A stretch of 64,000 nt of DNA from a virus. The DNA lies in IMG/VR virus record IMGVR_UViG_3300043185_000099, positions 87,956 through 151,955 of that record; one strand, given 5' to 3'. Both the position numbers and the translations under genes were made by a program. How positions within the stretch are numbered: the first letter of the stretch is position 1; every line of letters starts with the position of its first letter. Shown in pieces: positions 35,465 to 35,511 of this stretch. The notes beneath the pieces are model-generated. The model had not been told where the DNA came from. It ran no database searches and saw only the letters and a program-made list of their open reading frames with translations.

Positions 35465-35511
35465 GCAGCCCGTCATCTCCGACGCCTCCACCAACGCAAA
35501 GCATGTGTACC
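35465..35511. other. Left attachment junction (B half + TC core + P arm)
   Basis: + strand ...CCGACGCC-TC-CACCAACGCAAAGCATGTGTACC; the junction reads like a tmRNA/tRNA-Ala 3' end (CGCCTCCACCA). Confidence 0.8.

Follow-up and report, generated by a model that had tools for sequence, protein, structure and literature searches.

A serine-integrase island of a tmRNA- and tRNA-Ala-targeting family at a probable off-target site in a very large phage

Results

At positions 35489-41320 of the window, by which we mean the whole stretch of 64,000 nucleotides analysed here, lies an element of 5832 bp. Its attP is divided, with one half at each end and 5.8 kb between them. The left junction, attL (35464-35511, plus strand), consists of a phage arm B (35464-35486), the core TC (35487-35488) and an element arm P' (35489-35511). 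The right junction, attR (41296-41343, plus strand), is built of the element arm P (41296-41318), the core TC (41319-41320) and the phage arm B' (41321-41343), and in both junctions the TC sits at the centre of symmetry. When 41296-41320 and 35489-35511 are put back together, they yield an attP of about 48 bp, in which the arms form an imperfect inverted repeat around the 2-bp crossover. Indeed, P agrees with the reverse complement of P' at 17 of 23 positions, the best value in the 64-kb window (the next best is 15); of 300 trials with random 23-mers, 14 reached a value of 17 within 10 kb. The element is not flanked by a direct repeat. The G+C content is 0.68 within 35489-41320 versus 0.60-0.63 outside.

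The gene next to attL (35473-37254, minus strand) encodes a large serine recombinase (LSR) of 593 aa, which we analysed by Pfam, translation, alignment and a tree, and its last seven codons cross attL. The protein shows the domains Resolvase (PF00239, E 2e-28), Recombinase (PF07508, E 7e-24) and Zn_ribbon_recom (PF13408, E 1.5e-8); the catalytic motifs are intact when aligned with those of its relatives, and the four zinc-ribbon cysteines are conserved. With its catalytic, recombinase and zinc-ribbon domains and an attP of about 48 bp, the LSR is predicted to be a serine integrase. Just before the tail that is encoded by the arm, it carries an insertion of 36 aa that is missing from all aligned relatives. 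At the DNA level this insertion contains two strong hairpins just inside arm P' (35507-35607, minus strand; fold z-score -4.6), which could be a terminator-like or protein-binding feature between the body of the LSR gene and attL.

On the other side of the LSR gene, an ORF of 88 aa (37251-37517, minus strand) overlaps the LSR start by 4 nt and was also called as a gene in L022, another assembly of the same phage. It gave no Pfam or PHROG match. Small ORFs are found at its position in the relatives L019 and L020, and it is a candidate directionality factor. The cargo region (37536-41051, both strands), annotated by gene calls, RNA scans and family searches, contains a NikA-like RHH protein (37536-37787, plus strand), a tRNA with an 8-nt anticodon loop (37865-37940, minus strand), two proteins of 162 and 290 aa (38014-39371, minus strand), an XRE regulator (39452-39709, plus strand), two proteins of 123 and 239 aa (39780-40867, plus strand) and an ORF of 67 aa (40848-41051, minus strand). 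By type, these are regulators, membrane or coiled-coil proteins, an odd tRNA and proteins without a known family. No replication, packaging or transfer genes were recognised in the cargo with Pfam and PHROG, and neither a second resolvase-domain protein nor ParB or Mom homologues are found among it. The far end of the element is occupied by a gene for a 79-aa HTH protein (41065-41304, minus strand; weak HTH Pfam matches), whose start codon lies inside arm P. Arm P is likewise followed by an ORF in G001 (L024), a Solirubrobacterales MAG, and its product shares 41% identity (E 4e-11) with the 79-aa protein.

The window forms the final 64 kb of a 151,955-base IMG/VR virus record with a completeness of 29% by CheckV; the phage should therefore be very large. 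Synteny with the window is seen in four other IMG/VR contigs. The hallmark search gave no match to the Pfam sheath and terminase families in the phage, and a PHROG search with eight large ORFs gave no phage hallmark, so that the viral label rests on the IMG/VR and CheckV record and on the four syntenic relatives. A megablast search with 18 kb against GenBank phages found no match, and a search of the record found no tyrosine integrase. Elsewhere in the window we noted a 707-aa protein (54244-56367, minus strand) with a match to Pfam Volactin (actin-like, E 6e-64), which is split by an intein with a LAGLIDADG domain, and, directly after a giant gene of 2480 aa, a homing-endonuclease-like ORF (51240-52070, minus strand; phrog_314, E 1e-25).

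The site of the element is intergenic. The phage gene adjoining attL is speD, which encodes S-adenosylmethionine decarboxylase (34999-35391, minus strand; Pfam AdoMet_dc) and is syntenic in L016 and L017, two distant relatives; its ATG at 35391 is 97 nt downstream of the site. An earlier note on this DNA, made from the sequence alone, had described an alanine-type acceptor 3' end at the left junction, with CACCA supplied by the element arm, in an intergenic site that has no RNA gene body and lies about 40 bp from a candidate speD promoter. The plus strand at 35479-35493 does read as such an acceptor end, letter for letter, and the CACCA at 35489-35493 belongs to an arm that is conserved among the elements of the relatives. 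The 10-mer at 35484-35493 is the reverse complement of the final LSR codons (RWWRRRR-stop). No tRNA or tmRNA body or fragment was detected at the site by ARAGORN, by an Rfam scan of 34900-42300 (E<=10) or by a search of the whole 152-kb record with a tmRNA model. The stretch 35400-35493 contains no tDNA and resembles one only in the inner 12 nt, and neither a tmRNA nor a tRNA-Ala gene is present in the available part of the record. The promoter is not supported: a consensus scan of 35300-35700 finds no promoter-like site.

We then turned to the relatives of the LSR. A protein search returned 566 homologues at E<=1e-30, and 119 of these, with 54-62% identity, were inspected. The nearest one is 62% identical; a natural chromosomal copy of the window LSR was not found. 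The tails of these proteins identify the target of the family. For 83 of the 119 homologues the tail translates the tmRNA 3' end (WWRRRESNPRP type) and for 10 it translates tRNA-Ala (UGC or GGC). Another 15 end at the junction, and most of the other 11 read the same DNA in a different frame. After a few homologues, for example P0073, tmRNA-like sequence extends over only about 12 nt.

Seven loci could be read as DNA, four of them from collection scans (L003, L004, L005, L010) and three from protein look-ups (L019, L020, L021). In all seven the gene runs into tmRNA (five) or tRNA-Ala (two) at the same junction. The LSR gene of L003 (Solirubrobacterales MAG, 60% identity) stops 18 nt short of the tmRNA 3' end, that of L005 (Geomonas, 36% identity) overlaps the tmRNA gene, and those of L019, L020 and L021 each enter a tmRNA gene, with smpB nearby in two cases. 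The genes of L004 (Acidobacteria MAG) and L010 enter tRNA-Ala(GGC). The earlier note had expected that homologous elements adjoin ssrA or tRNA genes and that their integrases end in a WWRRRESNP-like C-terminus. Both expectations are borne out, by the seven of seven DNA loci and the 93 of 119 tails that translate a tDNA 3' end, and by the fact that the predicted C-terminus is the majority state of the LSR family.

In the tree, which was rooted on non-tDNA LSRs, the window LSR nests in the tDNA-targeting clade as sister to P0004, and the 52-row clade has an SH-aLRT of 97. We accordingly describe it, by sequence, as a predicted member of a tmRNA/tRNA-Ala-targeting clade (tails of the GGSNSLRWW type) that is present at a non-canonical site. 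Its terminal branch measures 0.95 versus a median of 0.11, about nine times the family median, and with such a long branch its present specificity may differ from that of the relatives. The phage-borne LSR has this long branch although none of its catalytic or zinc-binding residues has been lost, which suggests that it evolved fast, or in a redirected way, once it had left the chromosome.

The recombinase is the only part that the window element and the elements of the relatives have in common. The ssrA islands of the relatives (L020, 2540-8276; L019, 1-7804; L021, 1-4908) carry cargo of the defence type, namely type I restriction-modification, a SMODS/patatin (CBASS-like) pair, large helicases with DUF1156, HipA and a ThiF/BilD-like gene. 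The far ends of the relatives' elements are beyond reach, being more than 10 kb away in L019-L021 and part of an incomplete array in L003.

The seven natural DNA junctions align without gaps. They show, in this order, an element arm ending in the complement of CACCA, then GA (TC in the RNA sense), the acceptor 3' strand and the T-arm. It follows from this gap-free alignment that the core T is U70, the alanine identity base, and that the element re-supplies C72-A73-CCA. The outer part of the relatives' element arm is GGTTCGAAT, the same word as the T-loop of the target; the distance between its start and the core is 23 nt in the element arm and 18 nt in the target arm, an offset of 5 bp. Rutherford and Van Duyne are said to have described such a 5-bp offset between attP and attB half-sites in serine integrases. 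In G001, the genome of L003, a tandem junction keeps an intact family attP, a near-palindrome about GA, which is followed by an HTH gene. The corresponding stretch (L024, 1500-1560; G001 contig 4, 6165-6219) belongs to a tandem array of two family elements, in which a shortened upstream copy of the recombinase ends in the intact attP-like junction and the HTH gene of the next element then begins.

The window arm fits into this scheme. P' aligns gap-free to the arms of L004, L005, L010, L019 and L020. Its inner 14 nt match those of L004, L005, L010 and L020, while its outer 9 nt differ, with GGTACACAT versus GGTTCGAAT. Both window arms carry GGTACRCAT at the position of the relatives' GGTTCGAAT, a lineage-specific and mirrored change. 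The element-side arm of the window is homologous to the restoring arms of the relatives, in line with the earlier proposal that this arm would rebuild an RNA 3' end. One may speculate that, for this clade, the alanine identity pair U70-C71 serves as the crossover and the T-loop as the outer arm motif; its switching between tmRNA and tRNA-Ala would then be explained. Taken jointly with the idea of a still-mobile island that is discussed below, we hold this to be tentative and, on balance, doubtful.

How closely the phage site resembles a genuine target was evaluated with a weight matrix derived from the target arms of the seven natural loci. For its inner 12 nt, B ranks 49th among the 24,766 TC sites in the 152-kb record (top 0.2%). 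The full 23-nt arm is unremarkable, with 3159 TC sites (13%) scoring equal or better, because the T-loop part is missing. The best 23-nt site in the 152 kb reaches 13 bits versus 26-34 for the natural arms, and neither B nor B' contains any copy of the outer arm motif. The site has the character of a pseudo-attB: it offers the TC core and agrees with the target at about 9 of the 12 inner positions, while a T-loop and an RNA gene are missing. The look-alike secondary site that had been proposed is hence upheld for the inner ~12 nt and the TC core and fails for the T-loop part, which is absent. The resemblance of 35479-35493 to an acceptor end might also be irrelevant, with five bases given by the family arm and the rest a chance match in G+C-rich DNA. 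This would agree with the behaviour of the 10-mer at 35484-35493, which has one exact copy in the 64-kb window and 17 matches with one mismatch, with the 48 other TC sites that are equal or better on the inner 12 nt, and with the unremarkable full arm. However, judged by its core-proximal positions the site is among the best 0.2%, the TC core that is required is present, and serine integrases such as phiC31 use degenerate pseudo-sites. We regard this alternative as quite unlikely.

Two further sources of sequence cover the junctions. L022 (Logan assembly, SRR13020435) matches over 18,967 nt with one mismatch and spans both of them; L023 and L018 (JGI sample 3300043271) span the left and the right junction, respectively, at 100% identity. 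Because the junctions are identical in these three contigs (99.995-100%), a chimeric assembly, which the earlier note had named as a way in which its proposal might fail, is excluded. Exact look-ups of the 208-aa protein encoded beyond attR, the LSR and the SpeD protein gave only contigs of the same phage, all with the element. IMG/VR was also searched with the rebuilt attB 23-mer, the LSR and the 208-aa protein; neither a relative nor an empty site came up, and we found no variant with the site unoccupied and no circular junction.

Related phages without the element could nevertheless be compared. In the distant relatives L016 and L017, a Ros/MucR-methylase gene is followed after 55 nt by speD, and the element is absent. 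In L012, a close relative (about 80-84% nucleotide identity), the 42086 side is joined directly to the 35485 side with GC microhomology. Thus, L012 lacks 35486-42085 as a single piece, which comprises the island plus a further 765 bp, and from this single gap it follows that the 765-bp block and the island share a boundary. All three relatives have kept the gene order. The split attP, the HTH gene at the far arm, the G+C step and a relative phage without the segment support an integrated state of the element in phage DNA. As the extra 765 bp are missing in the nearest element-free phage as well, the insertion history is not simple.

The main rival explanation starts from this point. A ready-integrated island may have been captured from a host chromosome by illegitimate or microhomology recombination, without any action of the recombinase on phage DNA; the left flank would then consist of a few bases of the host ssrA or tRNA-Ala 3' end, and the right one of about 765 bp of host flank. 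Seen against L012, 35486-42085 is indeed one indel flanked by GC microhomology. The inner 12-13 nt next to the core, moreover, fit tmRNA ends as well as they fit L012 (9 of 12 versus 9 of 13 innermost positions of B, about equal), and P0073 and a few other homologues likewise meet only about 12 nt of tmRNA-like sequence. The right flank is what speaks against capture. The block that is also absent from L012 (41321-42085, minus strand) has a backbone-like, phage-like G+C content of 0.605. It contains an orphan ORF of 208 aa (41409-42035, minus strand), for which no homologue was found among 5.8 billion proteins. A 23-nt sequence of the speD leader (35418-35440, minus strand) recurs as a direct repeat, with 20 of 23 positions, at 42011-42032 in the first codons of this ORF, and a 10-mer that the two share is found only in these two places in the 152-kb record. 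In addition, the first two bases of B' after the core are CG, although C72-A73 would have to follow in a real tDNA flank. From the CG start, and from the 23-nt repeat that the block shares with the speD leader, we read attR as a precise junction of element and phage. G+C content, orphan ORF, speD-leader repeat and CG start indicate that the 765-bp block is phage DNA that was probably already present when the recombinase acted. Capture would also need a coincidence on the left, where the breakpoint would lie no more than a few bases from the crossover. We consider it unlikely.

Several other relationships of the block were tried. A second arm at the L012 indel boundary (42063-42085) was rejected at 2 of 23 positions by hand count, as were a paralogy of the 208-aa protein with an 819-aa protein (E 0.46) and a decayed older element of the family as the source of the block, the start of which agrees with the element arm at 8 of 23 positions and which has no LSR similarity. 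An alignment of 41321-41375 with L012 7830-7876 was set aside (score 22, many gaps). In L012 (7990-8030, compared with window positions 35391 and 34165) a deletion fuses the first three speD codons to the middle of the 819-aa gene, which marks the region between the genes as a rearrangement hot spot in this phage group. The Ros/MucR-like protein of the distant relatives is fused to a C-terminal methyltransferase-like region (L016, 3332-5929; 865 aa); the window and L012 retain a short remnant of this methyltransferase-like C-terminus after a shorter Ros/MucR gene.

Discussion

The recombinase module could also be a lysogeny or rearrangement function of the phage itself and not a passenger. The phage would then integrate at the host ssrA, or the LSR would remove the 5.8-kb segment on schedule and so rejoin the flanking genes. 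In keeping with this, the element is present in every contig that carries this speD or 208-aa gene, the LSR is intact and most island genes are co-directional with the surrounding phage genes. However, with the attP halves 5.8 kb apart, the phage genome as assembled cannot integrate through attP. The module is absent from L012, L016 and L017, in which the gene order is the same, it stands out as foreign by its G+C step, and in bacteria the same module carries unrelated cargo such as restriction and CBASS genes. A function of the phage's own is thus very unlikely in our judgement.

We favour, with a probability of roughly 0.6, that a small LSR-driven island, from a family that normally occupies ssrA/tRNA-Ala 3' ends, was integrated off-target in the phage by its own recombinase. 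In this family, recombination would join a near-palindromic attP to ssrA or tRNA-Ala genes at their 3' end, with the 2-bp crossover placed on U70-C71 of the acceptor stem; because the element arm re-supplies C72-A73-CCA, the RNA gene would stay whole. In the present case the island lies integrated in non-coding phage DNA between the 208-aa orphan gene and speD. The recombinase itself presumably made this insertion while island and phage resided together in a host cell, and the island would now travel with the phage genome; as the earlier note had proposed, it may hitchhike in phage particles. It is conceivable, though rather doubtful when taken jointly with the U70-C71/T-loop reading of the clade, that the island is still mobile. 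It would then excise on infection and integrate at the ssrA or tRNA-Ala gene of the new host, with the huge phage as its vehicle. If true, this would be a chromosomal island of the defence type that is dispersed inside a phage genome.

The rebuilding of tDNA 3' ends has long been credited almost wholly to tyrosine integrases. The Islander paper (2014, PMC4383910) stated that tDNA targeting was not known for serine recombinases, and an LSR is used by a minority of tycheposons. The clade to which the window LSR belongs is a serine-integrase clade with hundreds of members that targets tmRNA/tRNA-Ala genes and rebuilds their 3' ends. In a limited literature search, neither the att logic of this clade nor a comparable island in a huge phage was found described. 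The att logic, with the core on U70-C71 and a T-loop-like motif that is shifted by 5 bp between attP and attB, is testable and would be useful for integrase engineering. A clade member at a pseudo-site in a huge phage suggests, moreover, that phage genomes can gain islands of the chromosomal type by off-target integration, which is a possible route for island cargo between hosts.

Comparison with known systems

The well-studied serine integrases of phiC31, Bxb1 and A118/LI have the same domain set as the window LSR. Their attP arms are inverted about a 2-bp core, attP has its outer motif about 5 bp more distant from the core than attB, and degenerate pseudo-sites are usable. They target protein-coding or intergenic sites, which they usually disrupt. 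In contrast, the window clade targets genes of the tRNA type and rebuilds the 3' end.

A closer parallel is given by the ssrA islands of Dehalococcoides with the serine recombinase DsiB, which were described by McMurdie et al. 2011 (PMC3146451). The DsiB gene overlaps attL and ssrA, and the system has a crossover in the T-loop, a 20-bp repeat and a partner recombinase (PMC3146451). Like the window family, these islands are LSR-driven and sit at the tmRNA gene, with a recombinase gene that overlaps attL and a reading frame that enters ssrA; tandem arrays occur in both, and neither has transfer genes of its own. The differences concern the crossover and the accessory genes. The Dehalococcoides islands use a T-loop crossover and a 20-bp direct repeat, whereas here we see acceptor positions 70-71 and a 2-bp core only. 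They also have a second, small serine recombinase, DsiA, and a six-gene integration module, neither of which is present in the window element. The DsiB islands, which we liken to ours by their description, lie at ssrA, while the window copy lies in a phage.

Prophage-embedded satellites are known for a clade with tyrosine integrases (PMC10111431). These HE-PICIs resemble the window island as small integrative elements inside a phage genome. They use tyrosine integrases, specifically enter phage late genes and bring functions for packaging hijack (PMC10111431), whereas the window island has a tDNA-type serine integrase, an intergenic pseudo-site and no recognisable packaging or replication genes.

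Finally, the islands of tyrosine integrases (Islander/TIGER; Williams 2002, 2003) target tDNA 3' ends and restore the gene from the element side just as the window family does, and in both groups defence cargo is frequent. Their recombinase is unrelated, however, and they work with a long block of identity, whereas the window family relies on a 2-bp core and on recognition of the arms.
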